From Desulfosudaceae bacterium (GTDB taxonomy: Bacteria > Desulfobacterota > Desulfobacteria > Desulfobacterales > Desulfosudaceae), in contig CAXXDV010000003.1 of NCBI GenBank assembly GCA_963674745.2, positions 2,368,001 to 2,432,000 on the forward strand: DNA of 64,000 bases, given 5' to 3'. Position numbers and translations under genes: made by a program. Shown here piece by piece: positions 29,832 to 58,050 of this stretch. Each line of letters starts with the position of its first letter. The stretch's first letter is position 1. A model generated the notes under the pieces. It saw only the letters and a program-made list of their open reading frames with translations. It made no database searches and was not told the origin of the DNA.

Positions 29832-29957
29832 CATATGTACAACAAACGTGACTCTCGAGTCAATAAAAATTTGCCTTTTTCATGTCGGATTTTTTTTAAT
29901 GCCGCCAACCCGAGGATTCTACCTTTCGGACGAATTATAATGGCTTCCCCGATAAAA

Positions 29958-30068
29958 GGACACCCACAGGGGGTGCCCCTACGAGCCTCGGAGGACGTTC
30001 ATACATATTGTAGGGGCAGGCCCCCGTGCCTGCCCTGATGAAGGGCAACCATGGGGGTCTGCCTCTGC
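29958..30068. repeat. GTAG-type REP cluster
   Basis: GGACACCC..GGGTGCCC-CTAC (29958-29982), GTAG-GGGCAGGC..GCCTGCCC (30010-30035) and a degenerate inverted copy to ~30068. Confidence 0.75.
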
Positions 30069-31235: not shown

Positions 31236-31324
31236 TTAAGAAGGCCCTTTGTATAAGGGACCCAGCCTGCCGCCGTTCAGCACGCCGGCTTTTTATAATC
31301 AATCAATGAAGAAGAGGATTTTCC

Positions 31325-32113
31325 TTACTGGGTTTTATCCGGTTTTCTGGCCAGCATGATGAGTTTTTTACCGAACAGCAATTGAGGGCTCAGCACCTGG
31401 CGCATTATGGTTTTTGCTGCTTCTTTGGAAAGTTCTTTCTTTTTTTTACGGTAAAGCACCCGCCTCGTGGAAATCCAGGCCAAAGGATATAAAAAAGGGG
31501 CCAGCAACAGTGAATTAATGGAATATCTGGTCGTATCAACCGCGACGACCTCAAGCCCGACGTATTCCAGATAGCAACGAAGCTGAAAGGCGTTGATTAA
31601 AAATATGTGGCCGAAGTATACCCCTTCCGAGTCATGGTCTTGATTTACCGTGTCGTTCCCGCAACTGGCGGTTGCGACAACCGGAATACTGTTTCTACGG
31701 GCGCTCCCGGTCAATAACAGAGACAGTCTTCCTTCCAGATGGAGCGTATTCGGGGTGGTGACAACCAGTAATCCGCCCGGCTTCAGCGTGCGTGCCATAT
31801 CCCTTAAAGAGGCGACCTGCGCGTCCAGGTGTTCAATACCCTCCGAGAACAGAATGCCGTCAAATTTCTCATCGTCGAATGGCAGCGATTTTTCAAGGTT
31901 TATTTTTTGTATCTTAATGCCTTTGCCATGTATGTTTTCAGGAAACAGATCGCCGGCGATGACGTCAAACCCGGAAGCGACCAGACTTCGTGAATTTACG
32001 CCGTCACCCGCCGGCAGATCAAGCACAAGACCATCACGCAGATATTTTTTAAACCAGCTGCCCACATCATCATGGATGTGACGACTCCTGAATAATCGCT
32101 TGATCAGACTCAT
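31325..32113 (-). CDS. Class I SAM-dependent methyltransferase
   Basis: VLDLPAGDG, LPFDDEKFDGILFSEGIEHL, RTLKPGGLLVVTTPN. Confidence 0.88.
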   Translation of the reverse strand: MSLIKRLFRSRHIHDDVGSWFKKYLRDGLVLDLPAGDGVNSRSLVASGFDVIAGDLFPENIHGKGIKIQKINLEKSLPFDDEKFDGILFSEGIEHLDAQVASLRDMARTLKPGGLLVVTTPNTLHLEGRLSLLLTGSARRNSIPVVATASCGNDTVNQDHDSEGVYFGHIFLINAFQLRCYLEYVGLEVVAVDTTRYSINSLLLAPFLYPLAWISTRRVLYRKKKKELSKEAAKTIMRQVLSPQLLFGKKLIMLARKPDKTQ

Positions 32114-32230
32114 CCGGTTTCTTTCTCTCCAGCATTCACTTACAATAAAATAACAAAATAAACGAAAAAACGTGCTTATTATAGGCGGTATGTATAACAA
32201 GACTGCAATTGAAGTGTCAATAGGTTAATG

Positions 32231-33321
32231 GGGACGCCCTTTATATTTTTATATTTAATAATTCAGACAATACAAACCGCTCCTCACAAACGATTCTCTC
32301 CCCTTTTCTAACCGCCAGACTCACTGTCGGCACGGCAATTTTAAGGCCGTCAGCGACTTCCGTCATCGACATGCCCAGTTCTCGCACGCTCCAGTAGCAA
32401 ACCAGCGCCCGGCCCTTTACGACGATCCTCTCCTTGGACGGCCCGACCAGGGACCGGCCGGGTATCAGGAGCAATTCTGAAACTGCCGCAACGATATCCT
32501 TCATCTGAATCCCATTGACGACCATACGGTATCGGTTGTCCATTACTTCCCGGGCGTCTGCCAAAACCGTATTGACGAAATCCCCGTCGCCCAGGATGCG
32601 CTCATCGCTCTTTTGAAAGGTACCTGCTTTACGCTGGGAACGGACGGCTGCCCAGCCACCGGCACTGCGCAACAGGCCACCGCCGATAAGCGCCGGTTGT
32701 TTGCCCAGTTCCAGGCCTTTAACGACATGTTCCCGATATCGCTTTCGCGCCGTCGCCTGTCGATCACCAAAGTAAGTCAACACCGCTTTTGTGGCCTGCC
32801 AGTCATTTTCGTTTTTCCCCAGAATATAACTATGACCGGCAAAACGATATTTATCCAGCGCGGCCATGTCTTTAACCAGCCTGGCTCGCAAAGGATTTAA
32901 ATGGATGTATCGTACCAGTTCTTTTAAGTAGACGTCTTCCTGACAAAGAATTGATTTATACCGGTTCTGGAACAAATGTCCGCTTCTGCGATGACGACGG
33001 TTGTGACTGACGGCATAGCCTGTCAGCAAACGCCGCATGACCGAAGAGATCGGCACACTGCCGGTTTTTAACAATAAATGAAAATGGTTGGGAATCAATG
33101 CCCAGGCAAAACATTGGGTCTGAGTTTCTTGAACCAGTTCACCAAGACGCTCTATAAAGTTTTCCCGGTCCTCATCGTCCCGGAAAATTCTGCCGCGCTC
33201 GATTCCTCTGGCAATGATGTGGTGCACCGCACCCGGTGCGTCTATCCTGGCTTGTCTGGGCATATATTATTCGTATCAGACATTGCATCACCTGTAAATA
33301 TAAAAATATAAAGGGCGTCCC
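32231..33321 (-). mobile_element. TIR-bounded element encoding a RAYT-like Y1 transposase
   Basis: Perfect 27-bp inverted repeats GGGACGCCCTTTATATTTTTATATTTA (32231-32257) and TAAATATAAAAATATAAAGGGCGTCCC (33295-33321). Confidence 0.85.
32241..33263 (-). CDS. REP-associated-type tyrosine (HUH/Y1) transposase with C-terminal HTH
   Basis: MPRQARIDAPGAVHHIIARG, HUH motif NHFHLL, GHLFQNRYKS, candidate catalytic Tyr in RYIHLNP, C-terminal helix-turn-helix. Confidence 0.9.
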   Translation of the reverse strand: MPRQARIDAPGAVHHIIARGIERGRIFRDDEDRENFIERLGELVQETQTQCFAWALIPNHFHLLLKTGSVPISSVMRRLLTGYAVSHNRRHRRSGHLFQNRYKSILCQEDVYLKELVRYIHLNPLRARLVKDMAALDKYRFAGHSYILGKNENDWQATKAVLTYFGDRQATARKRYREHVVKGLELGKQPALIGGGLLRSAGGWAAVRSQRKAGTFQKSDERILGDGDFVNTVLADAREVMDNRYRMVVNGIQMKDIVAAVSELLLIPGRSLVGPSKERIVVKGRALVCYWSVRELGMSMTEVADGLKIAVPTVSLAVRKGERIVCEERFVLSELLNIKI

Positions 33322-33441
33322 TAACTTACCCGGCTTAGCCAGCAAAATTCATATTGAATAATTATTTTCGGTTATGATATTCTTATAATTATCATTGAGA
33401 TCAAAGGGAGCAAAAATAAAAATTATAGGAGTCAGATAAAA

Positions 33442-33645
33442 ATGCCGCAAACAGTCGAAGAAATAACAAAAGCGATCATCAGCCTATCAAAGGAAGATTT
33501 GGCAAGGCTCCGGAGATGGTACGATGAATTTGAAGCAAGACAATGGGATCAGAAATTTGAAGCAGACGCCAAATCCGGAAAGCTGGATCGGTTAGCGGAA
33601 AAGGCGATCAATGACTTTAAATCCGGGCAATGCAGCCAAATATGA
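33442..33645 (+). CDS. Putative type II antitoxin
   Basis: 67 aa (WDQKFEADAKSGKLDRLAEKA), GGAG RBS, ATGA overlap with the downstream toxin-like gene. Confidence 0.75.
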   Translation: MPQTVEEITKAIISLSKEDLARLRRWYDEFEARQWDQKFEADAKSGKLDRLAEKAINDFKSGQCSQI

Positions 33646-33899
33646 AACATTTTGCCAACGCAGATTTTTGGGCATGCTATAAAAAATTACCCTTATCCAT
33701 CCAGGAACTCTCCGATAAAAACTTCAAACTCCTGAAAGAAGACTCAAACCATCCTTCGCTGCACCTCAAAAAGGTCAGTCGTTTTTGGTCTGTGAGAATT
33801 GGAATCAAGTACCGAGCACTGGCCGTAGAGATAAACGAAGGGCTCATCTGGTTTTGGATCGGAACTCACGCCGAATACGACAAACTCATATCATCTTAA
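33642..33899 (+). CDS. RelE/ParE-like type II toxin
   Basis: FWACYKKLP..HPSLHLKKV..WSVRIGIKYRALA..WFWIGTHAEYDKL. Confidence 0.8.
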   Translation: MKHFANADFWACYKKLPLSIQELSDKNFKLLKEDSNHPSLHLKKVSRFWSVRIGIKYRALAVEINEGLIWFWIGTHAEYDKLISS

Positions 33900-33991
33900 C
33901 CACGACTTAAGACAACAAAGCCCGTACCCTACTTATTCCCCTACCACACAGGAAAAGAACAAATTTATAGGAAGGGCGCCCCCAAAACGTC

Positions 33992-34339
33992 CTATTTTCC
34001 GTTATAGATTTCTGCAATTTTTTCAACTTCAGGCCGCTCGAAAAGCCTGCCGTTTACATCCATGATCGGGTATTTATACACCATTGTATTTAATCCTGCC
34101 GTTTCCATCCTGGGCAGCACTTCATCAAGGACTTCCTTTTCTTTTATATTCTCATAATAATAAGGGATATCCCGTTCTTCCAGATCGCGTTCCATCTTCT
34201 GGCACCATCCACAGGCAGGGTTTCCGTACAGAATCACATACGGTTCATCATACAACGGTTCCAGCTTATTGCCCGCAAACTGTTGATACCCGAAATAACA
34301 AAGCACAGCCGCTGCTGCTACAAACAAAAGCTTATTCAT
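33992..34339 (-). CDS. Membrane-anchored glutaredoxin-like protein
   Basis: N-terminal hydrophobic segment, YGNPACGWC CxxC, YPIMDVNG. Confidence 0.8.
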   Translation of the reverse strand: MNKLLFVAAAAVLCYFGYQQFAGNKLEPLYDEPYVILYGNPACGWCQKMERDLEERDIPYYYENIKEKEVLDEVLPRMETAGLNTMVYKYPIMDVNGRLFERPEVEKIAEIYNGK

Positions 34340-34498
34340 GCTCCCCCCCATTCAAAACACTTTTACGTAATATGCAAAATCATAGCTGCTTTCGAAAAAT
34401 ATATGTGAACCGCTCTGGCAGGTTTATCGTTTAAAAAATTTTACGAAAAATCATAAGTGGCAGCAAAGCCATGGAATCATCAGGGGTTGAAAAACATC

Positions 34499-34524
34499 AA
34501 ATATAAAAATATAAAGGGCGTCCC
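34499..34524 (+). repeat. Exact 26-bp copy of the transposase right end
   Basis: AAATATAAAAATATAAAGGGCGTCCC, abutting the stop codon of the TPR gene at 34525. Confidence 0.92.
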
Positions 34525-35193
34525 CTATTTGTCCATAGCCTCATTGGCCATACCCAATTTATTGTATAACAATATCAGGTTTTTACGTTTATCGTTGTTT
34601 TCAGGGTCTCTTTTTAAAACATCTTTGTAACACTCAATTGCCAACCCAATATTTCCCATTTTTTCGTATACAGAAGCCAGCACACCATAGCTATTCAAAT
34701 AATCGGGCTCAAATTGAATTGCTTGTTTCAAATGCGCTTCTGATTCTATAAGGTTACCGTTATTATAATAATAGGTTCCCAAGAAATAATGGGCCATTCC
34801 ATTCTTATTATCTAGCCTAATGCTAATCATTAACTCTTCAATTTGTAGTTTCTCTAAATCTTGCATTAAACTCAAATTATCACTAACTTCAACCTCCTTA
34901 TTGTTTTCATTCTTTCCTTTTGAGAAAAAATCATAGAGTTTCAATGCTCTGTTTTTATCGAAAAGCTCTAAATGCTTATAAAAATAAGCAAGGCTTAGAT
35001 TGTAATGAACGATAGCCACCTCAGGATTTATTGTAATTGCCTTTTCATAGACTTCTATCGCACGATCCCATAATCCCTGATGAACAAAATCATTCCCTTG
35101 ATTAAGTAATGCTTCGAACTCATCAGGTGCTGCGTTTAAGCTGGATAGGAAAAAAACAAAAAAGTATAGTATAAAAATACAAAATATTCTCAT
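34525..35193 (-). CDS. Exported TPR protein, partner of orphan Rhs-CT 4
   Basis: Signal peptide and TPR motifs (AIEVYEKAITINP, AHYFLGTYYY, AIECYKDVLKRDP); start at 35193 with a GAGG RBS. Confidence 0.8.
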   Translation of the reverse strand: MRIFCIFILYFFVFFLSSLNAAPDEFEALLNQGNDFVHQGLWDRAIEVYEKAITINPEVAIVHYNLSLAYFYKHLELFDKNRALKLYDFFSKGKNENNKEVEVSDNLSLMQDLEKLQIEELMISIRLDNKNGMAHYFLGTYYYNNGNLIESEAHLKQAIQFEPDYLNSYGVLASVYEKMGNIGLAIECYKDVLKRDPENNDKRKNLILLYNKLGMANEAMDK

Positions 35194-35264
35194 TTCTTTA
35201 CCTCTTTTAAACTTGAAAGAATAACAGAATCCCAAGGATCCAAACAATTATTTAACTTCGTTTA

Positions 35265-35756
35265 TTACTCTAAAGTTAAAGGGTTACAACAATCTTTTCG
35301 ACCTTTAAGTGTTATTTTTTCACATGTTAAATGAGAGCTATGAATATTCTCTTCTCCAGCGGTAACTGTAACATCATGAGGAAATGGCCATGGATCATAA
35401 CAAATAGTTCCAGGTTTTAGAACCCCACATTCTATTTTTCTTTCTTCCTTATAAATTAAATCCATTGCTTCAGCAGAAGAACTTGTATCCGCAGAATACT
35501 TCGTGAAAAATATGATTATGTCAAGACCGTCACCAGGTTGAGCCGTTGGCGTAGAGTCAGCCAAGCCATTGAAATCTTTTGAATTATGTGGGTTATTAGA
35601 CACATATGCATAAGAATTAGTCTTTACTTTGATGACAGAATTAATAATTCTTTGTGTGTAGATCGGATCAACCCTCAGATACCTTCCAACACCCGCATTA
35701 TAGTATCTATGGTAATTATAATGCAACCCCGTCTCTTCATCATAGTATTGGCCCGG
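35265..35756 (-). pseudogene. Orphan Rhs C-terminal module 4
   Basis: Frame begins PGQYYDEETGLHYNYHRYYNAGVGRYLRVDP, followed by a unique Cys-containing CT; no Rhs body upstream. Confidence 0.85.
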
Positions 35757-35935
35757 ATATACTTTGATGCAGGTTACCTCCCGAAGACCTGTTTTTTACC
35801 CCCCTTGTTTTGTTGGTTGTTGGAAATAAAACTGTTCTTTATGGGTTAAAGGGAAAGGGGGTTAAAAGATGCAGAAGCGTATCCATTCTATATGGTCGTT
35901 GGGCAAAAAACCGTCACCCACCAACACAAACAAAA
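35757..35935. repeat. Conserved inter-cassette linker, copy 4
   Basis: Contains AAGACCTGTTTTTTACCCCCCTTGTTTTGTTGG and TGGTCGTTGGGCAAAAAACCGTCACCCAC. Confidence 0.85.
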
Positions 35936-35969
35936 CAATTTCTTCTTTTTATATCAAAAATATATCTTG

Positions 35970-35995
35970 AAATATAAAAATATAAAGGGCGTCCC
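35970..35995 (+). repeat. Exact 26-bp copy of the transposase right end
   Basis: AAATATAAAAATATAAAGGGCGTCCC. Confidence 0.92.
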
Positions 35996-36003
35996 TAAGT
36001 CCT

Positions 36004-36090
36004 ATATCAGGCCCCGGAGTGGAAATTTGCTCAGAGTGCGTAGAGATCTGCAGTGAAATCGTTCAAGACCACAGGGAACCTAAACCGTAA
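36004..36090 (+). pseudogene. 3' fragment of a ClpX-type C4 zinc-finger gene
   Basis: Manual translation ISGPGVEICSECVEICSEIVQDHREPKP*, resembling the second half of the ClpX zinc finger (IAGPGVYICDECVELC); the first CxxC is missing. Confidence 0.65.
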
Positions 36091-36160
36091 CATGTGGCTG
36101 TCGTGCAAGAAAACCGTCACCCACTAACACACAAGAAACGCATAAAAGCATAGACGTCCA

Positions 36161-37495
36161 CTATTCGTTCCCCAACTTGTTGGCTTGGTCCGACCCCGGT
36201 TCCGGTTGGTAATCTCGGACTGGCCAAACATATTGTTCCTCATTAATTTCGACTACATTGCTTTCCCCTCCAAACATCCTTACGGTCCATGCTTCCAATC
36301 TTATGCCTCCCCCATTTATTGGTTTTAAAAATCTAAAGGACGTGCTTGTCCAGTAACTGCCATCGGGTTCTAATAGAAATGGATCACCTGCTGACCATTT
36401 AGAGGTTCCAGATGTATCGGAAAGACAAGGTGAGTGATATGCCATGTTTCTCAAACTTTCCAGTTCAAAAAGATTCGGGAGCCTCCAATCCCCAGTTTTC
36501 GATTGATCTGTCAAGCCGCACTGACCGCTCTGAAGCGATTTACAAAAATCGACAGCTTCATTCCATGGAGCTGGCCCTGTTTCACCTTTTGCAGATCGAT
36601 AGTTGGCTCTTTTTAACCATACCAACCCTGTCAAATTATCAGTTACTGTGCCATTTGAGTTATCCGTAAACCGAGGAAACGGCAATCCCATGCCCTTCTT
36701 TTCATCCCCATCATCACCAGTTCTGTATTTGATTTTCTGCCCTGTCCGCTGAATGGATATAATTGAAGCGATATTGGATTCTTTATCACGAACAGGCCAA
36801 GCTAGACGATGAATACCTTTGTCGAGTGCATTTACGCTTCCTTTAGATATAAAAACATCCCAAGCGCAAGATGGGTCATGCGAACTTGTAGTGCTTGACC
36901 AATAGCCACCAGATAATAGAAAAAACGGATCGCCTTTTTGCCATTGAGAAGTTCCAGACGTATCGGAAAGACTAGGGTCGAGATATGCCATATCCCGCAA
37001 ACTCTCCAATTCAAAAAGATTCGGGAGCCTCCAATCCCCAGCTTTCGATTGATCTGTCAAGCCGCACTGATTGCTCTGAAGGGATTTACAAAAATCGACA
37101 GCCTCATTCCATGTCACCCGGCCTTTTTCACCTGTTGTAGATCGATAGTTAGCCTCTTTCAACCAAACCAACCCGGTTAAAATATCTGTAATGGTTCCAT
37201 TTGAATTGTCTGTAAATCGGGGGGAAGGCCATACAATACCTTTTTTTTCATCCCCATCATCACCAGTTCTGTATTTGATTTTCTGCCCTGTCCTTTGAAT
37301 GGATCTGATTAAAGCAACATTGGACTTCTTTTTAAGATTACTATCTAAAGATTGAATATTGACTGAGTATAGCTGTTTAGAGATTGCGAACCCCGTCAAA
37401 TCATTCCAGGCGGCCCAAATTACGATTGTTAAGGCAATAACCAACATAGATCTCTTTAACAAAAAAGAGAAAGCTTTTTGAAACATTTTCGACAA
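36161..37495 (-). CDS. Exported protein with two DUF1566 (Lcl-type) domains
   Basis: Two copies, 546 bp apart, of RTGQ..GDDG..PRFTDNSNGT.TD.LTGLVWLK..WRLPNLFELESL..YW.ST..WPVR. Confidence 0.85.
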   Translation of the reverse strand: MSKMFQKAFSFLLKRSMLVIALTIVIWAAWNDLTGFAISKQLYSVNIQSLDSNLKKKSNVALIRSIQRTGQKIKYRTGDDGDEKKGIVWPSPRFTDNSNGTITDILTGLVWLKEANYRSTTGEKGRVTWNEAVDFCKSLQSNQCGLTDQSKAGDWRLPNLFELESLRDMAYLDPSLSDTSGTSQWQKGDPFFLLSGGYWSSTTSSHDPSCAWDVFISKGSVNALDKGIHRLAWPVRDKESNIASIISIQRTGQKIKYRTGDDGDEKKGMGLPFPRFTDNSNGTVTDNLTGLVWLKRANYRSAKGETGPAPWNEAVDFCKSLQSGQCGLTDQSKTGDWRLPNLFELESLRNMAYHSPCLSDTSGTSKWSAGDPFLLEPDGSYWTSTSFRFLKPINGGGIRLEAWTVRMFGGESNVVEINEEQYVWPVRDYQPEPGSDQANKLGNE

Positions 37496-37518
37496 TTGAT
37501 TCTCTATGCTCCTGTTGT

Positions 37519-38175
37519 CTATTTACAAGATATATGTTCTTCTTCTCCACAATAGGGCGACAAAAATGTTTTCTGCATCCATTTACCACCACCCCCCATA
37601 CATTCAAATCTTACAGTTACCCCTTCATCTTTGCAACACCCTGTTTGGCAAATTGTATTGGCCTGCTTTATAGCTTTACCCCATAAATCCTCAGCCCCCT
37701 CACCTACATCAACCTCATTATTTGGAAGCTCTACATCTGGGATCGGGGTCTCTACGGTTGTATAGTGTTCCGCATTGCATCCATAGGAAGTGGCGGCAGA
37801 GCATGAATCATTATATACTGTCACGGGAATGTTCGATTGGTCTAACTTTACTTTATCGTCCTGGATTCCTGGATCAGCCACATCCAAGTTGCGGATTCCG
37901 TGACCAAAAAATATTATAACATTACATTTCTCAACCCTAATATAATGAGAACCATCGGCATTCTCATACACACCATATCCTTCACCTGTAGTGCCTTCGC
38001 CCAAAAATCCTGCAGGGTCACTAATGATATTGGGATTATTAAACGCATATAAAAAAAGATTAATCCCTCCATTAAACCCAATCGGATCAACCCGCAAATA
38101 CCTCCCCGTCTTCGGATCATAATACCGCCACATATTATAATGCAGCCCCGTCTCACTATCAAAGTACTGGCCCGG
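37519..38175 (-). pseudogene. Orphan Rhs C-terminal module 3
   Basis: PGQYFDSETGLHYNMWRYYDPKTGRYLRVDPIG..NNPNIISDPAGF plus a Cys-rich CT. Confidence 0.88.
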
Positions 38176-38320
38176 ATATATTCTGATGCGCCTCCCCCCC
38201 GAAAGACCTGTTTTTTACCCCCCTTGTTTTGTTGGCCCCCGGATGAACTTCTTTTTAAAGATATGACAATTTACCATATGGTCGTTGGGCAAAAAAACCG
38301 TCACCCACTAACACACAAAA
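38176..38320. repeat. Conserved inter-cassette linker, copy 3
   Basis: Same blocks as at 35757, 41813 and 43408. Confidence 0.88.
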
Positions 38321-38371
38321 AAAAAGAAAACGATATAAAAAGAGGTGCTTAACATCGGATAAGTTAATAAG

Positions 38372-39136
38372 TTAAGGGCGTCTCCTATTCGTCTCCTGTA
38401 ACTTTTTATTGATCAAATCAAAATATAGCTCGGGAACAGATTCACCTTGGTCCTTGGCTTTTGTTAAATAATTCAATGCTTCTTTATAATCCCCAACATG
38501 ATAAGAACAAACACCCAAATCAAATAAAAAAAAGCTTGAGGATTTACCCCACTTAATCAATTCTTTTAACTCATGCCTTGCATTGATGTAGTCATTATTT
38601 TTTTTATATATCTTTAATAACTTCTCACGCAATACGGTATCAGAAGGATTTATTAGTAAATATTTTTTACAAAATTCTTTTAACTCTTCCTGAGTCATAT
38701 TTGCTTTTAATGATTCTAAATCCTTTTTAGGAAATACGAACACTTCCGTATCACTTCTCATCGTTGAAAGCAACTCATATTGTTTTATACCCTCTGAAAC
38801 ACCTTTTGCCTTAAACACAGCATACATTAAATTATAGTTTAATAAATAGTTATTAGGTTCTATCTTTAGTCCCTCCTCATATATCTTAATAGCATTAACA
38901 AGATCTCCAAGTTTTCTTTCATACAGATTTCCTATTTTAATATATAAATCTATTTTCGTGGGTTTGTATTTTAATGCGTTATTATATTCAAATATTGCTT
39001 CTACAAACCTCTTTTCTTCTTCTAATCGACTTCCTTTCTCAATATACGTCCATTCATCTACATAAGTGTAAGCTTTAGTGCTCGACACAAAAAATACTAA
39101 ACACATTATACTCATTATTAAATATCGTTTTGTCAT
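38372..39136 (-). CDS. Exported TPR protein, partner of orphan Rhs-CT 2
   Basis: Signal peptide and TPR motifs (AIFEYNNALKYKP, AIKIYEEGLKIEP, LGVCSYHVGDYKEALNYL). Confidence 0.82.
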   Translation of the reverse strand: MTKRYLIMSIMCLVFFVSSTKAYTYVDEWTYIEKGSRLEEEKRFVEAIFEYNNALKYKPTKIDLYIKIGNLYERKLGDLVNAIKIYEEGLKIEPNNYLLNYNLMYAVFKAKGVSEGIKQYELLSTMRSDTEVFVFPKKDLESLKANMTQEELKEFCKKYLLINPSDTVLREKLLKIYKKNNDYINARHELKELIKWGKSSSFFLFDLGVCSYHVGDYKEALNYLTKAKDQGESVPELYFDLINKKLQETNRRRP

Positions 39137-39172
39137 GATAATCTCTCTTTAATAATTATTCTCGCCTTATCA

Positions 39173-39358
39173 TTAAAATGGTATATTATGCTCTTTTTTA
39201 TATTCTTCCGTCACAGGTGGCAATGGATCTAGCACAAGTGTTTCATACTTTTTTTCTGTATTGGCTGTTACAGGATATTCTGTCCCTTTAATTTTTGTGC
39301 ACGATTCTTGAGGCAAGGCAAGATGGCTCAAACATGTTTCCACCCAGCATTCGAATAA
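39173..39358 (-). pseudogene. Remnant 3' end of a probable orphan Rhs-CT 2, cut by IS66
   Basis: Open frame LFECWVETCLSHLALPQESCTKIKG..KKEHNIPF* running from the IS66 end to just upstream of the TPR gene. Confidence 0.6.
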
Positions 39359-39386
39359 AGGTAAGCGTCAAGTTAACCCCACCCCA

Positions 39387-40979
39387 TCAGGTCGGGGAAC
39401 TCAGAGCGGCTGGATCGAGGTTTTGCGGCAGTAGTTTCTTGTATTCTTCCGGATCACCGTCGATCAGTGGAAGCTGCTCAAAGATATATCGCAAGTACGC
39501 ATAAGGTTCCAGCCCGTTCGCCTTGGCCGTTTCGATCAGGCTGAAGATGGCGGCGCTGGCGGCCGCACCCCGGGGATGCCCGGAAAATAACCAGTTCTTT
39601 CGTCCCAAAACAAAGGGCCGAATGGCGTTCTCCACCAGGTTGTTATCGGGTCGCAGACGTCCGTCCTGAACATAGCCGGTCAGCCGGTCCCATTGGTCCA
39701 GAGTGTAATTGATGGCTTTTCCCAGCAGTCCTTGAGGCGGTGTCTGTTGACTGCGTTTGTCCAGCCACTTTTTAAAAGATTCCAAGATTGGCAAGACCTC
39801 AGCCTGTCGAAGCTCGCGCCGTTGATCCGGGGAAAGTTCCGCTTTATCGGCTCGGCTTTCCACTTGGTACAGTTTGCCGATGAAACTCATGGCCTTTTCC
39901 GCGCTGCCGGGTTTCTGCGGCTTCCCTTTTTTTACCGGCTGACGGGCCTTAATCACTTCATGAAACTTACGGCGTGCGTGCGCCCAGCAGCCGATGTGAA
40001 TAATATTGGAGGCTTGCTCCAGGCTGTTATAACCTTTATAACCATCAGTCTGGATATAGCCCTCGTAGCCGTTTATGAAATTCTTAGGAACCTCTCCGGA
40101 TCGCGTGGGGTGATATTGATAGATCAGCGCCGGTTTATCCGGATCACCTCCGCGGAAAACCCACATATAGGATTTGCTGGTATTATTCCGGCCGGGCTCA
40201 TTCAAAACCTGAACCGTGGTTTCATCCATGCCGATCAATGGACCGGATCGGATCTCTTGGCATAGGCCGTCAATCAAGGGCTGACACCTTTTTGCCGCCT
40301 GAATGGTCCAGTTGGCCATGGTAGCCCGGGGAAGATCGACCCCGATCCGGGTAAACTGCTTTTCCTGGCGGTAAAACGGCAGGCTGTCGGCAAACTTGGC
40401 TGTCAGGATATGGGCTATCAGGCCCGGTGTGGCGATGCTTTGCGGAATAAGTTGCGGCGGTAGCGGCGCTGTCTTGACTGCTCCTTGTTCGGATTCTACG
40501 CCTTCACATTGTTTGCAAGCGTATTTGTATCGAATATGGCGAATAACCTGTACTTTGGCCGGAATAACATCCAGTTTCTCGGAAATGTCTTTGCCGATAC
40601 GGCTCATTTCACAGCCGCAGGCGCACATCTTTTCTTCTTCCGGAATATCGTGAATAACGTCTATGCGCGGCAGGTCATCAGGCAGGGGCTTGCGACCGCC
40701 TTTTTTCCTGGAATGCCCGGTAACCGCTATCTTTTCTTCTTTTTCGTCGGCATCTTCAGCAATATCCTCGGCCTCGTCAAACAGGGTCATCTGCTTGTCA
40801 TCGGTGTCAATTATGTGCTTTTCTGATTTTTTGCCGAACAGCTTGGCTCTTAGAAGACGATTCTGTTTTTCTAAATGCTCAATACGGGTATGCTGAAATT
40901 GAATCAATTCATTGTCTGACTGAATGACTTTATTGAGATCTTTTATGGTATTCTGAAGTTGTGCAGACTCACTGTTCAT
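39387..40979 (-). CDS. tnpC: IS66 transposase TnpC
   Basis: Coiled coil, GGRKPLP, zinc ribbon, MDETTVQV, QTDGYKGY, CWAHARRKF, DNNLVENAIR, SLIETAKANG. Confidence 0.96.
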   Translation of the reverse strand: MNSESAQLQNTIKDLNKVIQSDNELIQFQHTRIEHLEKQNRLLRAKLFGKKSEKHIIDTDDKQMTLFDEAEDIAEDADEKEEKIAVTGHSRKKGGRKPLPDDLPRIDVIHDIPEEEKMCACGCEMSRIGKDISEKLDVIPAKVQVIRHIRYKYACKQCEGVESEQGAVKTAPLPPQLIPQSIATPGLIAHILTAKFADSLPFYRQEKQFTRIGVDLPRATMANWTIQAAKRCQPLIDGLCQEIRSGPLIGMDETTVQVLNEPGRNNTSKSYMWVFRGGDPDKPALIYQYHPTRSGEVPKNFINGYEGYIQTDGYKGYNSLEQASNIIHIGCWAHARRKFHEVIKARQPVKKGKPQKPGSAEKAMSFIGKLYQVESRADKAELSPDQRRELRQAEVLPILESFKKWLDKRSQQTPPQGLLGKAINYTLDQWDRLTGYVQDGRLRPDNNLVENAIRPFVLGRKNWLFSGHPRGAAASAAIFSLIETAKANGLEPYAYLRYIFEQLPLIDGDPEEYKKLLPQNLDPAALSSPT

Positions 40980-41047
40980 AATGGTTTACATAACAAAACC
41001 ATCATGCAATGTCAAGCCTGTTTTATGATTATGTAGTAATTTTTTAC

Positions 41048-41401
41048 TTAAATGACTGTGGAATATTGAAGCCTATCATGTCCCCGAACCTGGGTAATCT
41101 CAAGTCCGTCCAGCAACCACCCCAAACGCCGGGAACCGATCTCCATAACCTCATCATACGACTCTGGCCAGCGAAATTTTTCTTTCTCCAGACGCTTGTG
41201 CCATAGACAAAAACCGTTCCGATGCCAGTATAATATTTTGAGGATCGTTCGACGCCGATTGCAAAAAACAAATAAATGGCCGGAAAACGGGTCAAGTTCA
41301 ATCTGGCCTTCCACCATAATGGACAGGCCATTGATGGATTTTCTCATATCCGTATGACCCATCACCAGAAAAGCCCGCGTTTGGCTGGGAAAGAACATCA
41401 T
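41048..41401 (-). CDS. tnpB: IS66 accessory protein TnpB
   Basis: TDMRKSINGL, LFVFCNRRR..KILYW..GFCLW.KRLE..KFRWP. Confidence 0.95.
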   Translation of the reverse strand: MMFFPSQTRAFLVMGHTDMRKSINGLSIMVEGQIELDPFSGHLFVFCNRRRTILKILYWHRNGFCLWHKRLEKEKFRWPESYDEVMEIGSRRLGWLLDGLEITQVRGHDRLQYSTVI

Positions 41402-41727
41402 CGCCGGTCCACTACTTCCAGAACCTGCTCCAGAACCAACGGCTGAAATCCTTCGGATACTTCTATCCGGTATCGGTTATTAACGACCAGGCTTAACGGT
41501 GCGGACGGCATGGCTTGCGGCAAGGAAATCGGAACCAGGGAGACATCTGATGAAACCGGTTGTTCGAACTTTTTCTTCCAGTACACAAATTGCCATTTAG
41601 ACAAATTGTTTTTTCGCTGATATTCCGTCTGGCTCAGGCCACTGGCCCGCCACATCTGAATATGCCGTTCCCAGAACCGTCGTTTCTCCGCTCGTTCCTG
41701 TTCGCGGTTAATTTTCTTGTTTTTCAT
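41398..41727 (-). CDS. tnpA: IS66 accessory protein TnpA
   Basis: FWERHIQMWRASGLSQTEY..FVYWKKK HTH; overlaps the tnpB start. Confidence 0.9.
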   Translation of the reverse strand: MKNKKINREQERAEKRRFWERHIQMWRASGLSQTEYQRKNNLSKWQFVYWKKKFEQPVSSDVSLVPISLPQAMPSAPLSLVVNNRYRIEVSEGFQPLVLEQVLEVVDRR

Positions 41728-41812
41728 AATAGCGCCTTTCCGAATTAAATTTTTGGCGCTATCTTGACACGGTCCGCCCGGCTTGTGAAGATGGGGTTAA
41801 TTTGACGCTTAC

Positions 41813-41959
41813 TTTTTTTTACCCCCCTTGTTTTGTTGGCCCCCGGATGAACTCTTTTCTCAAGATATGATAGTTTACCTTAGGGTCGTTGGGCAAAAAA
41901 ACCGTCACCCACTAACACACAAAGAAACCGAAGAAACGCATAAAAGCATAGACGTCCCC
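41813..41959. repeat. Conserved inter-cassette linker, copy 2 (cut by IS66)
   Basis: TTTTACCCCCCTTGTTTTGTTGGCCCCCGGATG..GGTCGTTGGGC..GCATAGACGTCCCC. Confidence 0.88.
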
Positions 41960-41969
41960 ATTAGTCTTC

Positions 41970-42758
41970 CTATTTCTCCCCTAAATATTTCTGAGGCATT
42001 TCGTTAATATCCTTCCTAACGATTTCAATATTAAGGGGCAAAGCAGGCACTTTTATGCTGGACAATGACTTTAGTAAATCCTCTTTTAACTCACGTAATT
42101 TATTATATCTTGATAGGCTAACATTAAATAACAGCTTAGCTTCATCGTTACTATATATATCCGCTGAAGCATAATAATACCTCTTTCTTTCCATTTTATA
42201 TATCATGCAAGTAGCTTTGAGCGACTTAGAATCGATAATATACATACCAATTAATTTACCCACATTAAGGCTCATAAACTTAAAATGCTGATAGGTCCAT
42301 GCCTGTTTATTTTTATTTCTTGCATTAAAGATAGAGATATCGCTTGGGACCGATTTCAGAATCGCCGCTTTTTCTCGGAAGGAAGAGAAACTTATTGAGC
42401 CCCCGCCTTCAATTGTGTCTATCGATTCTTTTTTAGATCCGGTATATGAGACTATGAATGCACCTTTTTCAGAAAAGAAATAAACGCGATCCCCCTCACT
42501 AAATACTTTTTTATATTCCAACTTCGGAACTTTAAAGAAAAATCCGCCAATGTTTAACTCATTCCATTCTTCAGACGTTACGTTTACAGCACTCACACAG
42601 ATTGGAGTTACGCTTAATTGTTCATTTATGTAATCACCAAGCGTTCTCTTGACATGCCAGTTATATTGTAAAACAGGGAAAAAATACCAGATAGAGGCAG
42701 TCAATACGATAGATAGCACCAATGAGAGGCTGATGAACTTTTGATGTTTTATTTCCAT
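41970..42758 (-). CDS. Membrane-anchored hypothetical protein, putative immunity partner of orphan Rhs-CT 1
   Basis: 262 aa, AT-rich, N-terminal TM, directly downstream of the CT. Confidence 0.7.
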   Translation of the reverse strand: MEIKHQKFISLSLVLSIVLTASIWYFFPVLQYNWHVKRTLGDYINEQLSVTPICVSAVNVTSEEWNELNIGGFFFKVPKLEYKKVFSEGDRVYFFSEKGAFIVSYTGSKKESIDTIEGGGSISFSSFREKAAILKSVPSDISIFNARNKNKQAWTYQHFKFMSLNVGKLIGMYIIDSKSLKATCMIYKMERKRYYYASADIYSNDEAKLLFNVSLSRYNKLRELKEDLLKSLSSIKVPALPLNIEIVRKDINEMPQKYLGEK

Positions 42759-42831
42759 AGGATTATTAGCCTAAAATACAACAATACATTTATTGCAAAA
42801 CCGTGACGCAAAATAATGTTATTGCCTTGTT

Positions 42832-43407
42832 TTATTCACAACCAAAAGATTTATATAACTCTTGCGGGAATTCAAAACCCTTTCCTGCTTGGCATTCTGA
42901 CAAAGATTTAACACATTTTTCTCGACATCCTTGTTCATCAAAAGGCGCACTATTATCTAAATAAGCGTAACAACTTCCTTTTGCATTTCTACAGTTCTCG
43001 TTGCATGTTTGTTCAGCAATCATACATGTTGAGGAACGAGACCAAGGCACCTTTGATCCCGCCTTGCAAGCCTTCTCCTGTATTCTCATACTATTACATT
43101 CAGGTGCTTCAGGCACTTCGGACTCCGATGAGTCTTCCTCCTCTTTTTGTTCCTCAAGCCATGGTAAATACTCTAGTTCATATTCAGGTGGCATTAGACA
43201 AGAGGCCCCCCCATTTGCAGTCGGCACACATGTATCTAACCCTAATTGATCAAAGTATCGATTGGGATTATTTAACGCATATAAAAACAAATTAACACCA
43301 CTTGTTAACCCTATCGGATCAACCCTCAGATACCTCCCCGTCTCCGGATCATAGTACCGCCACATATTATAATGCAGCCCCATCTCCTCATCGTAGTATT
43401 GGCCCGG
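42832..43407 (-). pseudogene. Orphan Rhs C-terminal module 1
   Basis: PGQYYDEEMGLHYNMWRYYDPETGRYLRVDPIG..DQLGL plus a Cys-rich CT. Confidence 0.88.
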
Positions 43408-43876
43408 ATATATTCTGATGCGAGTCCCCCATAAAGACCTGTTTTTTACCCCCCTTGTTTTGTTGGCCCCCGGATGAACTTCTTTTTAAAGATATGACAA
43501 TTTACCTTTCAAATCAAATGGTCTGTGGCAGTTAAAAAAGAAAACAAATCGGGTGAAAGCGGCTCCAGTATGCCGGAGATGATCTGCTGCCATTTTCTGG
43601 GCAGGCCGGTGTAGATGGTTTTCAGCCGTTTACGACGAGCTTCGTATTCCAGGCAAATATTTTGTACGGCAGGACTCGAAGCCACGGCGGAACAAACATC
43701 ACAACCACCTTACCCGCACGGCTACAGGCGAGGTCGGCCGGCAGAATGGGTGCGCTTCAGGGGGCGTTTTTTTGACCATAAGATTGATCTGCTTCCTTAT
43801 GGTCGTTGGGCAAAAAAACCGTCACCCACTAACACACAAAGAAACCGAAGAAACGCATAAAAAGATAAACGTCCCC
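43408..43876. repeat. Conserved inter-cassette linker, longest copy
   Basis: Same terminal blocks as the other copies plus ~290 bp of extra internal sequence. Confidence 0.82.
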
Positions 43877-43920
43877 ATTATCCCTTTGCAAATGTAAAAG
43901 GCGTCCCCAACTTTACAACT

Positions 43921-44265
43921 TTACGTTGGACTAAGTAATCCCATTAAAGAAACAGCAATAAGTAAAATAACTACCACGGCTCTAACATAAGCTCCCATAT
44001 TCTTAAAAAGAACAAAAGGGGGTAGCCATAACCATATTTTTGAATTTATCCCGTCACCAATCATTAACCATAAAGCTAATACAATGCAGAACATCATTTC
44101 AAAAACGTCAAAACAATGCGACTCATAAACCCCTAATAAGAGAATATGTTTATCACGCACAAACCAGTACGAAACAATACAGATTGTAGGATATAAAATG
44201 AAGATTAACATCATTACCACAACCAATGCTTCTAAAGTTGTAGATAAGGCAAGACTCTTTTTCAT
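43921..44265 (-). CDS. Small membrane protein, putative cognate immunity of the full-length Rhs
   Basis: 114 aa hydrophobic ORF with a GGAG RBS; first sizeable ORF downstream of rhs. Confidence 0.6.
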   Translation of the reverse strand: MKKSLALSTTLEALVVVMMLIFILYPTICIVSYWFVRDKHILLLGVYESHCFDVFEMMFCIVLALWLMIGDGINSKIWLWLPPFVLFKNMGAYVRAVVVILLIAVSLMGLLSPT

Positions 44266-44586
44266 TGTTTAGAGGTACTCCGCTATTAGTGTCCAATTAA
44301 CCTATTCATAAGTCGTATAAATTTTTCTAAGCAAAAGGATGTGCTTCACGAAATCAATATTTAACAATCGACGTCTGTGACACAGTGTTAGAAACGCGAT
44401 AACTTCAAATCTAGATCGCAATAACCGTTAACATCTGGTTGCCATTACCAAAACAGATTACAATAAAAGTTAATCTTCAAAACAATTTGGCATTAAAGAA
44501 ATACCTATTTTACAAACATTCACAAATCACACTTACAAAAGGAAAATTAATAATGGCCCCATCGTTTAAATTTATCCGCATCTGCT

Positions 44587-47500
44587 CTATGAATAATTCG
44601 TGCCCTCTTTAAGCGACCAATGGCCGGTTGTCGTCATAGCGCCAAGATCAAGCCCTTTACTCCATCCTTTGAATCTTAAATAAGCTTGCGGGGTGTTGAC
44701 CCAGAGATGGCCATAACTCGAGCGGACACCTACCCCCCAAGAAGTTGCTCGTCCAAAACCAACGTGCTCCTTTAAAGAGATACAAGGCGTATCAAACCAC
44801 TGACCATCTCCAGATACAATAAAAGTTGGTACATTCTTAAATGAAAAGCCTATCCCTATTCCTACATATTGATAATCACTTCCCTGTATACAACATCTCT
44901 CTGGGTCTGCACGGAGCTCAGCATTAATTACCACACCGCCTGTTTCAATCGTAGCGCCGATAACAGAAACGATAGTCAGCCGCCATCTATCACAGTAACC
45001 GGCTTCACATAGGCCTAAAGAATCAATATTATTTATACTATTATTTGAGGCATAGGCAAAAATACTACTTCCTTTATCCGAATCAACCGGATCAACCCTC
45101 AAATACCTCCCCGTCTCCGGATCATAGTACCGCCACATATTATAATGCAGCCCCGTCTCCTCATCGTAGTATTGGCCCGGGAACCTCAGGTTGTTCTCAA
45201 CCGTATCAACCTCAACCGTTGCCTCCCCAAAGCTACTGTACTTCGCACTCCAGACCACAGCCCCGTTACTTGATGTCAGCTTCTGCGGTGTACCCAAGTG
45301 ATCATTGTGGTAGAAGAAGTAAGTACCACTTTCTCTCATGAACAAAGGATCGGTTCCCCAGGTGCCACCCGGCTGCCAGCCGTAGGTTTTATCCACATTA
45401 CCGTAAGAATCAATTTCAGCTACCAGACCTTCATCACTGTAATGATAGTAAGTCGTGGTACTTCCGACGGTCTTGCTTAATCTTCTGCCAAAGGGATCGT
45501 AATAATAACTGGCAATCAAATTATTCGAGTCGTCTCTGACTTCAGTAAGCCGGTCTTCTACATTGTAGACGTAATTTGTGACAACTCCAGCAACCGTCTT
45601 TTTGATGGTGTTGCCGTTGTCGTCGTACTCGTAAACAGCGTCCCCGGTTGAGTCGGAGGATGACTGAAGTTCGTTGTTGAAATTATAATCCCAATCACTG
45701 GTGCTATCCTCTGTGGTCAAGCGGTTGCCCACGTTATCGTAAGTAAACTCCTCGTCAGTCAGACCGGCGGCTTCGGGGTTGTCAACATCCGTCAACCGGT
45801 GCAGGGCATCATATTCATACCCATAATCCCCGTGCTCGGTGGCTTTGGAAGTGATGTTGTCCATTGTGTCATAGGTGTAGTCATAATTCAACAGGTCGTT
45901 TCCGCCCGGATCTTTGCCGATGATCTGTTTTATCCGCATCAAGGGATCATATTCAAAGGCCCTGGCACCGCCGCCGGGCAGGGTAAAGCCGGCCGGCCGG
46001 TTCCAGTTATAGCCGTTGACGGTCAAAAATCCAATGCCGGCGGGCATCTGAACCCCGGCCAGGCGATTGGCCGTATCATACATGTAGGTGTAAGTGACGT
46101 TGTCCGGGCCGGTAAAGGTTTTTTTAAGGCCGTTTTTTAGATGGGTGTAAGTATTGGTCCAGCTATAAGAGCCGTAAGTAACGGTCTCGCTGGTCTTTCG
46201 GCCGGCGTTGTCGTAGACATACACAGCAGATGTCGTACCGTCATTGTAACCGTCGAGATTACCCGCATCATCATAGGTGAAGCTGACGGTCTTGACCAGG
46301 GTGAGCGATGCGTCATAATAACGGGTTTCATCCAACTGGCCGGCATTATTATAGTCATATTCGGTTTTCTGGTCTTTGGCATCGATCTTTTCGATCAGGT
46401 TGCCCATCAAGTCATAATCATAAGTCGTTATTTCACCTTCGGGCCGGGTCTCTTTAGCCAGCCGGTTGTTGCCGTCATATGCAAACGCGGTGGTATTGCC
46501 CTGGGCATCGGTCAAAGAAGTCATATTATCGCGGTTGTCATAGGCATATGCCGTCTGCCCCTGGTTTGGATCCGTTACCCGGACCAGCCGGTTCAAGGCA
46601 TCGTATTCATAATACGTGATCTGGTTATCTTTGTCTGTTTTTTCGATCAGGTTGCCGGCCGGATCGTATACAAACCGGGTTTCTAAAGTTTCCCCCTCGG
46701 GAACAATCACCTGCTCGGCGATTTTTCTATTGCGTTCGTCATAGACAAAGGCTTTTTCAAAAGTGGGATAAGTGACGCTGATGGGTTGGTCGGCCGTGCC
46801 GCCACACGATGTACAGCCGCCTTCCGAGCTGACGGGATCATACTCGGTGACGATTTCATTGCCGGCAGGATCGATGGTTTTAACCCTTCGGCCGCGAGAA
46901 TCGTAGGCATATTCTGTGATAGCGCCCTCAGAATCAATCATCTTCACCAGTTTGTTGTCAAAGCCGTATTCAAAGGTGGTAATAATATCTTTTGAAGCGT
47001 CGGCCGGGTCCATGACCACGGTCTGCTTGATCATGTTGCCGAGCATATCATATTCAAACAGGGTTTCGGTTAAATCCGGGGCGATCTGCTTTGTCTTTCT
47101 CCCGCCAAAATCATACTCATACCGGGTAACTTTGTGTTCGGGATCTTCGGCGGTAAGCAAATTACCCATAGCATCATACGTATATGTCCAGACCAGGTCA
47201 TCACCATCAGGGTTTTCAACGGTTTTGGTCAGCACATTACCCATGATGTCATGGATAAAACGGGTGGTGACCGCCTCTCCTTCGGCATCGGTGGTGATGG
47301 AAGTCTGGTTGCCGTCGGGATCATAGGTCATGGTGGTAACAATATCAGACGTGCCCAGGATACGGGTTTCAATCAGGTGGCCGTTATTGTAAACGTATTG
47401 GGTGGTCCGCTCTTCGGTTGTGCCCACGGCCTCGGTTTTGCTGGCCCGGTTGCCCTGACTGTCATAGGTATACGCGGTAACAATACCGTTTTCATCAGTC

Positions 47501-57909: not shown

Positions 57910-58050
57910 GGGGTATGACCTCACTTGTTGATTATGTTTGGATAACGTCATATTATAAAAAATTTTTATTTCGTCTTAAATGCGTCGGTACCAGTGTTAA
58001 GAAGGCCAATGGCCTAATATCTCTATTCCCATCCCCACGGTACTTATTCA

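Follow-up and report, generated by a model that had tools for sequence, protein, structure and literature searches.

The end-repeats of a transposase-like gene were found at the edges of toxin cassettes in a stretch of 64,000 nucleotides from a Desulfosudaceae bacterium (GenBank assembly GCA_963674745.2, contig CAXXDV010000003.1, positions 2,368,001 to 2,432,000; the whole stretch is called the window). The gene, TIRYT-1, belongs to the tail of an Rhs polymorphic-toxin locus consisting of a main rhs gene, four orphan cassettes, a glutaredoxin-like gene, a ParE-type pair and a TIRtron end; TIRYT and TIRtron are the names given to RAYT-like genes with long flanking inverted repeats (Di Nocera, De Gregorio & Rocco 2013; PMC3733652). 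The explanation which we prefer, and which we hold to be about evenly poised between right and wrong, is that TIRtron end-repeats settle at toxin-cassette edges and that host recombination shuffles the cassettes, without an integron-like machine run by one enzyme. The original prediction had proposed that a single HUH enzyme captures, stacks or excises cassettes here in the manner of an integron. The enzyme family, the same-sense copies at boundaries, a non-chance tie to Rhs modules and a breakpoint at a repeat were borne out; the enzyme-run, integron-like capture was not.

The genome under study (G000, a 5.55-Mb assembly with contigs C1 and C3) was compared with 41 related genomes, in which TIRYT homologues were accepted at E ≤ 1e-20 and Rhs core ends were recognized by TIGR03696. 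A wider sample comprised 79 TIRYT loci, 71 of which were analysable for inverted repeats and 53 of which had at least 2.3 kb of upstream DNA; these loci were searched for Rhs with a hidden Markov model, which recovered the known Rhs-linked cases. Repeat copies were counted with up to three mismatches unless they are called exact, and the backwards sequence served as control.

TIRYT-1 lies between perfect terminal inverted repeats (TIRs) of 27 bp, as had been predicted, and the unit consists of the following features:

32241..33263, minus strand: TIRYT-1, a 340-aa Y1/HUH tyrosine-transposase-like gene (Y1_Tnp, invariant HUH and Tyr)
32231..32257, plus strand: downstream type-A TIR, 27 nt, 100% identity, the sole inverted copy, overlapping the gene's last codons
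33295..33321, minus strand: upstream type-A end-repeat, about 58 nt ahead of the ATG

The protein scored 41.9 bits against Y1_Tnp (Pfam cut-off 23) and carries the motifs PNHFHLL and RYIHLNP; H60, H62, Y119, N123 and P124 are invariant across 10 homologues. Against the curated RAYT model NF047646 (REP_Tyr_transpos) it reached 68.9 bits, which is under the cut-off of 80. Its Bac_DnaA_C score of 19 bits is below the Pfam cut-off; a profile of the 10 homologues matched DnaA domain IV chains (E = 8e-6), indicating a DnaA-type C-terminal helix-turn-helix (HTH), and the homologue at locus L211 scored 39.8 bits for Bac_DnaA_C. Among solved structures, only DnaA domain IV chains were matched, and the HUH half of the profile found no relative by sequence. 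A TIRYT homologue is present in 24 of the 41 related genomes. An exact inverted repeat of at least 14 nt was found at 16 of the 24 relatives' loci analysed, nearly all led by GGGGACG and located about 58 nt before the ATG, and GGGGACG-led inverted repeats occur at the same distance at 54 of the 71 analysable loci of the wider sample. In many homologues, furthermore, the inner portion of the repeat contains TTGACA, about 35-40 nt ahead of the ATG. The original prediction had expected homologues to have their own TIR repeated nearby; the inverted repeats agree with this, but extra copies within 5 kb were found at only 13 of 54 wider-sample TIRtrons and were absent from the other 41.

In the part of PMC3733652 covered here, a common GGGGWSAS motif is described together with repeat families of moderate abundance, found singly, as dimers or in groups, and GGGGACGC agrees with this consensus at 7 of 8 positions. 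According to the part of Quentin et al. (2018; PMC6006769) covered, 20 of 26 of those TIRYT fall into TnpA_REP subclass 2.1, with tails of the Bac_DnaA_C or another HTH type. The unit was identified as a TIRtron because the Y1_Tnp domain, the invariant HUH and Tyr residues and the GGGGACG-led repeats at a fixed distance match PMC3733652. The only full paralogue of TIRYT-1 (TIRYT-2; C3:1589265-1590254) is 51% identical and lies 0.8 Mb off. With two genomic copies that differ to this extent, the TIRYT gene is not a multiplying insertion sequence (IS).

The tie to Rhs modules was found at two levels. For 12 of the 15 Rhs core-end motifs in the genome, a same-strand repeat lies 783-1964 nt downstream, past the toxin tip and its partner gene. 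Furthermore, 7 of the 33 full-length TIRYT copies among the 41 relatives come right behind an Rhs toxin-immunity pair, at most 2.3 kb past a same-strand Rhs core end, as compared to 0.033 expected. These copies (G000, G007, G009, G013, G017:C40, G030 and G037:C25) come from six taxonomic families, and their layouts were verified on the DNA. A more distant homologue, G037:C5, shows the same position after Rhs. A decayed, internally deleted TIRYT remnant (G000:C1:1732160-1732446) follows about 560 nt past the stop codon of another large Rhs gene; no repeat core was recognizable near it.

An independent repeat-delimited array was found on contig C4 of G017, with 13 GGGGACG cores in 8.5 kb. Its order is an RHS-repeat open reading frame (ORF), a repeat, a TIRYT gene, a repeat, a 469-aa Rhs orphan with a 173-aa gene, repeats, two small genes, repeats and a TIRYT fragment. 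In the same array (L213, 6036-7854), the TIRtron apparently interrupts an rhs gene: the upstream repeat contains the end of a 235-aa RHS-repeat ORF, and the 469-aa Rhs ORF starts past the downstream repeat. At locus L239, two direct E-type repeats enclose a MazE+PIN pair immediately upstream of a TIRYT gene, and a ParE pair is likewise placed at L270, where the repeat call is weak. Both toxin-antitoxin (TA) pairs echo the ParE-like pair beside TIRYT-1.

The repeats belong to several types. The type-A 26-mer (AAATATAAAAATATAAAGGGCGTCCC) occurs at four positions of the window, 32231 (minus-sense), 33296, 34499 and 35970, including the two exact copies predicted at 34499 and 35970, and was absent from 100 shuffles of the window. 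These four are all exact copies of the genome; two further copies have three mismatches, and the backwards control gave none. The three same-sense copies are 100% identical over 26 nt and have unrelated flanks. This is not what duplication by homologous recombination leaves and suggests a repeat-specific process. The predicted common orientation was confirmed as well: on its minus strand, 32226-43920 contains GGGACGY six times (0.84 expected), and the plus strand has a single occurrence, at 32231.

Seven shorter cores had also been listed as sites. They mark real sites, but these turned out to be full type-B or type-E repeats or degenerate A-like copies, six in all, 33985 being the flank of the copy at about 33957-33983. 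Type B (GGGGACGTCTATGCTTTTATGCGTTT) is present in full 25-nt copies at 36136-36160, 41934-41959 and 43851-43876; it is also found about 60 nt upstream of the 51%-identical paralogue, to which it belongs. The type-E repeat at 38360-38385 is identical in 25 of 26 positions to the repeat flanking a 55%-identical homologue in relative G014, and type E flanks several genes of the wider sample; a homologue search detected no cognate gene for it in this genome. Degenerate A-like copies are located at 43883-43908 and about 33957-33983.

With up to three mismatches, the whole genome contains 22 B and 6 A copies, 28 in total, against none in the control. They are clustered, as the original prediction had anticipated, instead of occurring at one density throughout. 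The boundaries of Rhs toxin modules host 13 of the 28. Eleven of the B copies are located no more than 35 kb from the paralogue, and eight of these, in ordinary intergenic DNA, pair as four inverted doublets with a start-to-start offset of 43 nt. Type-B doublets fold into hairpins of 28-30 bp (-52 kcal/mol; z = -10.8 and -12.9); the window itself holds no repeat doublet. Of 12 genomes from the same family, 8 contain type A, both singly and as dimers. Exact type A occurs at 44 metagenome loci, of which 15 contain a TIRYT gene and about 16 are gene-less dimers, and it is retained there beside genes that are merely 54-82% identical. Solo repeats directly follow a stop codon in 17 of 50 cases in other genomes and 9 of 20 in G000, as compared to 349 of 3000 random positions, a control that includes genic DNA, so that no rule is drawn from these figures.

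Two other kinds of repeat were noted. A different short repeat of 44-50 nt (G000:C3:2578155-2578290; L016) has several copies, 82-91% identical, in G002 and G007. The intergenic region at about 29955-30040 of the window contains G+C-rich palindromes of a different REP-like kind (REP, repetitive extragenic palindrome).

At Rhs junctions the repeat is part of a composite unit. It is followed, after a spacer of 2-45 nt, by a conserved box, S25 (GTGTGTTAGTGGGTGACGG), and a T-run. S25 was found in 15 copies in this genome, none of them lacking a repeat altogether and 14 with a clear A, B or E repeat upstream, and it contains GGGTGACGG, a near-copy of the repeat core. The conserved junction block measures about 85 nt; repeat and S25 form conserved islands in it, and spacers and flanks have diverged. 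This unit trails 12 of the 15 Rhs toxin modules in the genome. It has at least 13 left flanks, all different (the 3' ends of different partner genes), and at least four classes of right flank. At several junctions homology continues from the repeat through the S38 box into the leader, and two junction subtypes are common to the arrays. When arrays on different contigs are compared, their junction segments show 80-97% identity, and these arrays share no toxin tips or partner genes. Looser scans of the loci already collected revealed the composite also in G001, G002 (with a fourth repeat type, F), G010, G011, G012 and metagenome contig L165; an exact S25 search of the species collection gave 0 matches, the pattern being too strict. 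The family-specific element of about 85 nt and its tie to Rhs are absent from the covered parts of both TIRYT papers (PMC3733652 and PMC6006769).

In the window, the repeats and boxes are arranged between the following units:

33442..33899, plus strand (opposite to the array): ParE-like pair, overlapping 67-aa and 89-aa genes, the second ParE_like (25.7 bits, cut-off 24.4)
33957..33983, minus strand: degenerate A-like repeat, 8 nt past the stop of the glutaredoxin-like gene
33992..34351, minus strand: glutaredoxin-like gene, 119 aa, CGWC motif, hydrophobic N-terminus, Glutaredoxin (23.4 bits, cut-off 22.9)
34499..34525, minus strand: solo exact type-A repeat, its first G being the last base of the TAG stop of the TPR gene
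34525..35726, minus strand: orphan cassette 4, an Rhs C-terminal toxin tip (Rhs-CT) of 153 aa (35265-35726; TIGR03696, 42.1 bits) and a 240-aa TPR protein, presumed immunity (34525-35247)
35905..35995, minus strand: solo exact type-A repeat (35970-35995), then S25/S38 box (35905-35938)
35998..36084, plus strand: 3' end of a truncated gene, 28 codons, homologous to the 141-aa gene G000:C1:1409827-1410252
36096..36160, minus strand: type-B repeat (36136-36160) and degenerate S38 box (36096-36133), 0 nt past the Lcl_C stop
36161..38133, minus strand: orphan cassette 3, Rhs-CT of 204 aa (37519-38133) and a 444-aa protein with two Lcl_C domains (36161-37495)
38280..38385, minus strand: type-E repeat (38360-38385), 32-nt insert, S38 box (38280-38317)
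38372..39343, minus strand: remains of orphan cassette 2, a 254-aa TPR protein (38372-39136) and a 56-aa ORF (39173-39343)
39354..41819, minus strand: IS66-family insertion with 43-nt inverted ends and tnpA, tnpB and tnpC (DDE_Tnp_IS66, TnpB_IS66)
41884..41959, minus strand: type-B repeat (41934-41959) and S38 box (41884-41921), 10 nt past the stop of the 262-aa gene
41970..43383, minus strand: orphan cassette 1, Rhs-CT of 183 aa (42832-43383; TIGR03696, 56.7 bits) and a 262-aa partner (41970-42758)
43801..43908, minus strand: A-like repeat (43883-43908), type-B repeat (43851-43876) and S38 box (43801-43838), 12 nt past the stop of the 114-aa gene
43921..57951, minus strand: main Rhs gene, 4454 aa (44587-57951), and a 114-aa membrane protein, presumed immunity partner (43921-44265)

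The predicted units, namely a TA pair, a glutaredoxin-like gene, four Rhs-CT modules with partners and a gene fragment (now 28 codons), were all recovered; the IS66 insertion that splits one module and the S25/S38 box at the junctions are additions to that list. The ParE-like pair is a probable toxin-antitoxin pair, judged by its domain match. Three of the four orphan partners match TPR or Lcl_C; no Pfam match was obtained for the fourth or for the main gene's 114-aa partner, and the partner genes are presumed immunity genes by their position. All three orphan ORFs tested start with the Rhs core end (TIGR03696) and continue into a unique tip. The fourth is cut by IS66, and we infer that the 56-aa ORF is the tail of the severed toxin tip. 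The orphan ORFs begin at the core tail, behind a non-coding leader, and share 93 nt at 98%, 98 nt at 91% and 42 nt at 93% with the main gene.

The repeat copies share one sense and lie 0-17 nt past the last stop codon of each unit. Four Rhs boundaries in the window carry repeats other than type A, three B and one E, that is, repeats of other lineages; this speaks against the proposal that the adjacent enzyme runs the array. A breakpoint was recognized at the A repeat 35970-35995, where homology to the 141-aa gene ends 3-12 nt from the outer end of the repeat. The full homologue of this truncated gene adjoins another Rhs locus on C1.

Several observations concern single members of the array. 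The 444-aa Lcl_C protein contains an internal tandem duplication (36359-36658 and 36905-37204; 300 nt, 81% identity), which yields the two Lcl_C domains. IS66 together with the adjoining type-B repeat, S38 and leader (39361-41962) matches an inverted copy at G000:C3:45462-48080 with 97.3% identity over 2623 nt; this copy, near the start of C3, adjoins an Rhs fragment and an ISL3 fragment. In contigs of a sludge metagenome run (X5), the ParE-like pair (window 33329-33920) was detected with 2-5 differences per 95-317 nt. There it adjoins an A-type repeat, and the remaining flanks differ on both sides.

The surroundings of the locus were compared with the sister species G001, whose TIRtron is flanked by a mutase-like and an rfbD-like gene; the two flanks are longer in G000, by about 3.2 kb and about 38 kb. 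The breakpoints could not be fixed at a DNA identity of about 80% and with a G001 contig of 3.6 kb. On G001:C166 (L084, L090), the TIRYT gene is followed within about 350 nt by three tandem A repeats and then by the rfbD-like gene. In the G000 region compared (C3:2400231-2439817), the rfbD-like gene is located about 38 kb off, beyond the Rhs locus and a 2111-aa RTX-type protein, and is preceded by an inverted A-like repeat at C3:2439579. A clean empty site for the unit at C3:2578344 was not found in G001 or G002, where homology stops at the neighbouring permease gene. Additionally, other arrays of orphan Rhs tips start right after two tyrosine recombinase genes and a primase-like gene (CHC2 zinc finger and Toprim): G000:C1:1422619-1427124, G000:C3:2709452-2714092 and 2718726-2720545, and G002:C13 (L133, L221). 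Such arrays may represent an integrative element carrying toxin cassettes.

The combination of gene, inverted repeats and dispersed copies has already been described as TIRtron. The suggestion that the arrangement might be undescribed thus does not hold, as TIRYT genes with TIRs and dispersed TIR families appear in the covered part of PMC3733652. Like the TIRtrons of TnpA_REP subclass 2.1.2, the unit has a RAYT-like Y1/HUH gene that encodes about 340 aa, including a DnaA-type HTH at the C-terminus; its long inverted repeats are not palindromes, begin with GGGG(A)(C), keep a constant distance from the gene and occur as singles, dimers and groups. It differs in that solo repeats of three lineages lie in one sense at Rhs cassette boundaries, fused to S25. 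Neither Rhs nor toxin is mentioned in PMC3733652, nor Rhs in PMC6006769, as far as the covered article texts go; the same parts contain no repeat-S25 unit and no repeat abutting a truncated gene. No description of a tie between Rhs and TIRYT or RAYT, or of a cassette system run by an HUH enzyme, was found in the open literature.

Other known systems are similar in part. With REP/REPIN-RAYT systems the locus shares an HUH Y1 gene flanked by cognate short repeats, intergenic copies and, for type B, hairpin dimers. However, the protein is under the RAYT cut-off, the single repeats are not palindromes and lack GTAG, and there are 28 copies in 5.5 Mb clustered near genes and toxin arrays, not tens to hundreds of dispersed ones. 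Orphan Rhs toxin-immunity modules and C-terminal displacement have reportedly been treated by Jackson in 2009, Poole in 2011 and Koskiniemi in 2014. As in these modules, a main rhs gene is accompanied by promoter-distal tips with a core tail and a partner gene, and by homology of the core ends; here, in contrast, core tails of 42-98 nt stand behind a leader and a repeat-S25 unit of about 85 nt, without a long core fragment. Integrons are defined by IntI, attI and attC cassettes. The locus resembles them as an array of same-sense units, each closed by a short recurring site, but it consists of 1-2-gene units, possibly with their own leaders. No Phage_integrase match, hence no tyrosine recombinase, was obtained in a Pfam domain scan of the 17 ORFs of 30708-44265, and folding detected no attC-like imperfect palindromes or hairpins at the solo sites, which speaks against the integron likeness that had been proposed. 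IS200/IS605 elements and their miniature derivatives share the Y1_Tnp domain and the expected single-strand cut-and-join at the ends; they are unlike this locus with its inverted repeats, its protein of twice the length and its two copies of only 51% identity.

In the preferred explanation, settling at cassette edges followed by host recombination, TIRYT enzymes would nick and rejoin single-stranded DNA, as expected from the HUH/Y1 family (PMC8266576), and would seed copies of their own ends mostly locally, as RAYTs are thought to do with REPs. The elements would settle repeatedly at the 3' edge of toxin-immunity or TA units and thereby give rise to junctions and breakpoints. Host recombination may then use the units of about 85 nt and the core tails of 42-98 nt to shuffle cassettes and swap tips. 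A repeat-specific process is preferred over plain duplication because the A copies share no flanks, three types occur in one array, a gene is truncated at a repeat and the flanks of the units vary; host recombination is plausible because junctions are 80-97% alike between arrays and the orphans share 42-98 nt with the main gene. Several results weigh against this explanation. Kinship of the genomes overstates the statistic of 7 in 33 copies. No Rhs core end was found within 5 kb at any of the 79 wider TIRYT loci (53 with at least 2.3 kb upstream), and an Rhs tip adjoins only 1 of the 44 metagenome type-A loci; only some lineages show the link to Rhs. For TIRYT of subclass 2.1, no activity is demonstrated in the covered parts of PMC3733652 or PMC6006769. 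The explanation does not account for the S25 box, which may represent a pseudo-end or another part of the element, its target, or a transcript signal. Furthermore, the junctions appear old, not freshly active, because they have diverged to 80-97% identity.

Alternatively, the array might be an active cassette system in which TIRYT cuts and joins at the repeats or at repeat-S25, two same-sense copies defining a unit that can be excised, stacked or captured; we regard this as doubtful. Same-sense solo copies do bracket every unit, homology edges are sharp at the GGGG end, the link to Rhs recurs on the same strand in 7 of 7 cases, and repeat types foreign to the genome stand at boundaries (E here, F-type with S25 in G002) as if travelling with cassettes. 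The MazE+PIN pair of L239 and the ParE pair of L270 between repeats and the second array on G017:C4 point the same way, as does the way in which the Y1 enzymes of IS200/IS605 work, on ends that are directly oriented and lie on one strand. The fullest version, with TIRYT enzymes as single-stranded-DNA cassette recombinases for which the repeat and an S25 pseudo-end serve as attC and by which toxin-immunity or TA units are excised, moved between genomes and stacked behind rhs, is likewise rather unlikely. The repeat-S25 spacing of 2-45 nt is unlike a precise crossover, most boundaries carry B or E and not the A repeat of the adjacent enzyme, the junctions have diverged, 41 of 54 wider TIRtrons have no extra copies, and Rhs arrays free of such repeats exist: the orphan arrays of G007 (2.48 Mb) and G021 have none. 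No circle or site-to-site deletion at the repeats was seen in public sequencing runs compared as Logan assembled contigs, in which rare excision products are invisible. Contigs of runs X9 and X10, which contain 0.97 of the sampled words and may stem from the source organism, break at repeats, and X1 and X5 contain repeat-repeat or repeat-S38 joints with short sides (21-36 nt) that may stem from other organisms; the contigs of these runs neither favour nor oppose excision. Repeat, S25 and T-run could instead form a transcript end, a start or an operator, perhaps bound by the DnaA-type HTH and selected without any role in rearrangement. Conservation of repeat and S25 amid diverged spacers and flanks, exact A copies beside 54-82% identical genes, TTGACA in the repeat of many homologues, the leader before orphan ORFs and the T-run after S25 are consistent with such an element. 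But solo repeats did not fold significantly better than shuffles (z = -0.43 to +1.0, with one exception of -2.6; type A, +1.0 and -0.15), promoter and terminator scans were not enriched (23 against 31.7 and 8 against 12.7 expected), Rfam gave only two chance-level matches, and the truncated gene at the repeat end is left unexplained; a purely regulatory role is clearly unlikely. Very unlikely, finally, is a single ancestral junction repeat multiplied by duplication or homologous recombination without TIRYT. The homology running from repeat to S38 and leader and the two subtypes common to arrays would suit it. What counts against it is that three or four repeat types, all with matching TIRYT genes elsewhere, stand ahead of one and the same S25 box; moreover, exact A copies lack shared flanks, every left flank is different, and the position of TIRYT genes behind Rhs modules is repeated across six taxonomic families.

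If the tie amounts to no more than a preference of the repeats for settling in variable toxin islands, we are dealing with an ordinary mosaic, which still documents a junction element of about 85 nt. The orientation-specific tie between TIRYT and toxins provides a testable substrate (A, B and E repeats, repeat-S25) and a phenotype (gain, loss or expression of cassettes). A cassette system, if true, would give a function to the RAYT-like proteins, which are enigmatic and apparently domesticated Y1 transposases.

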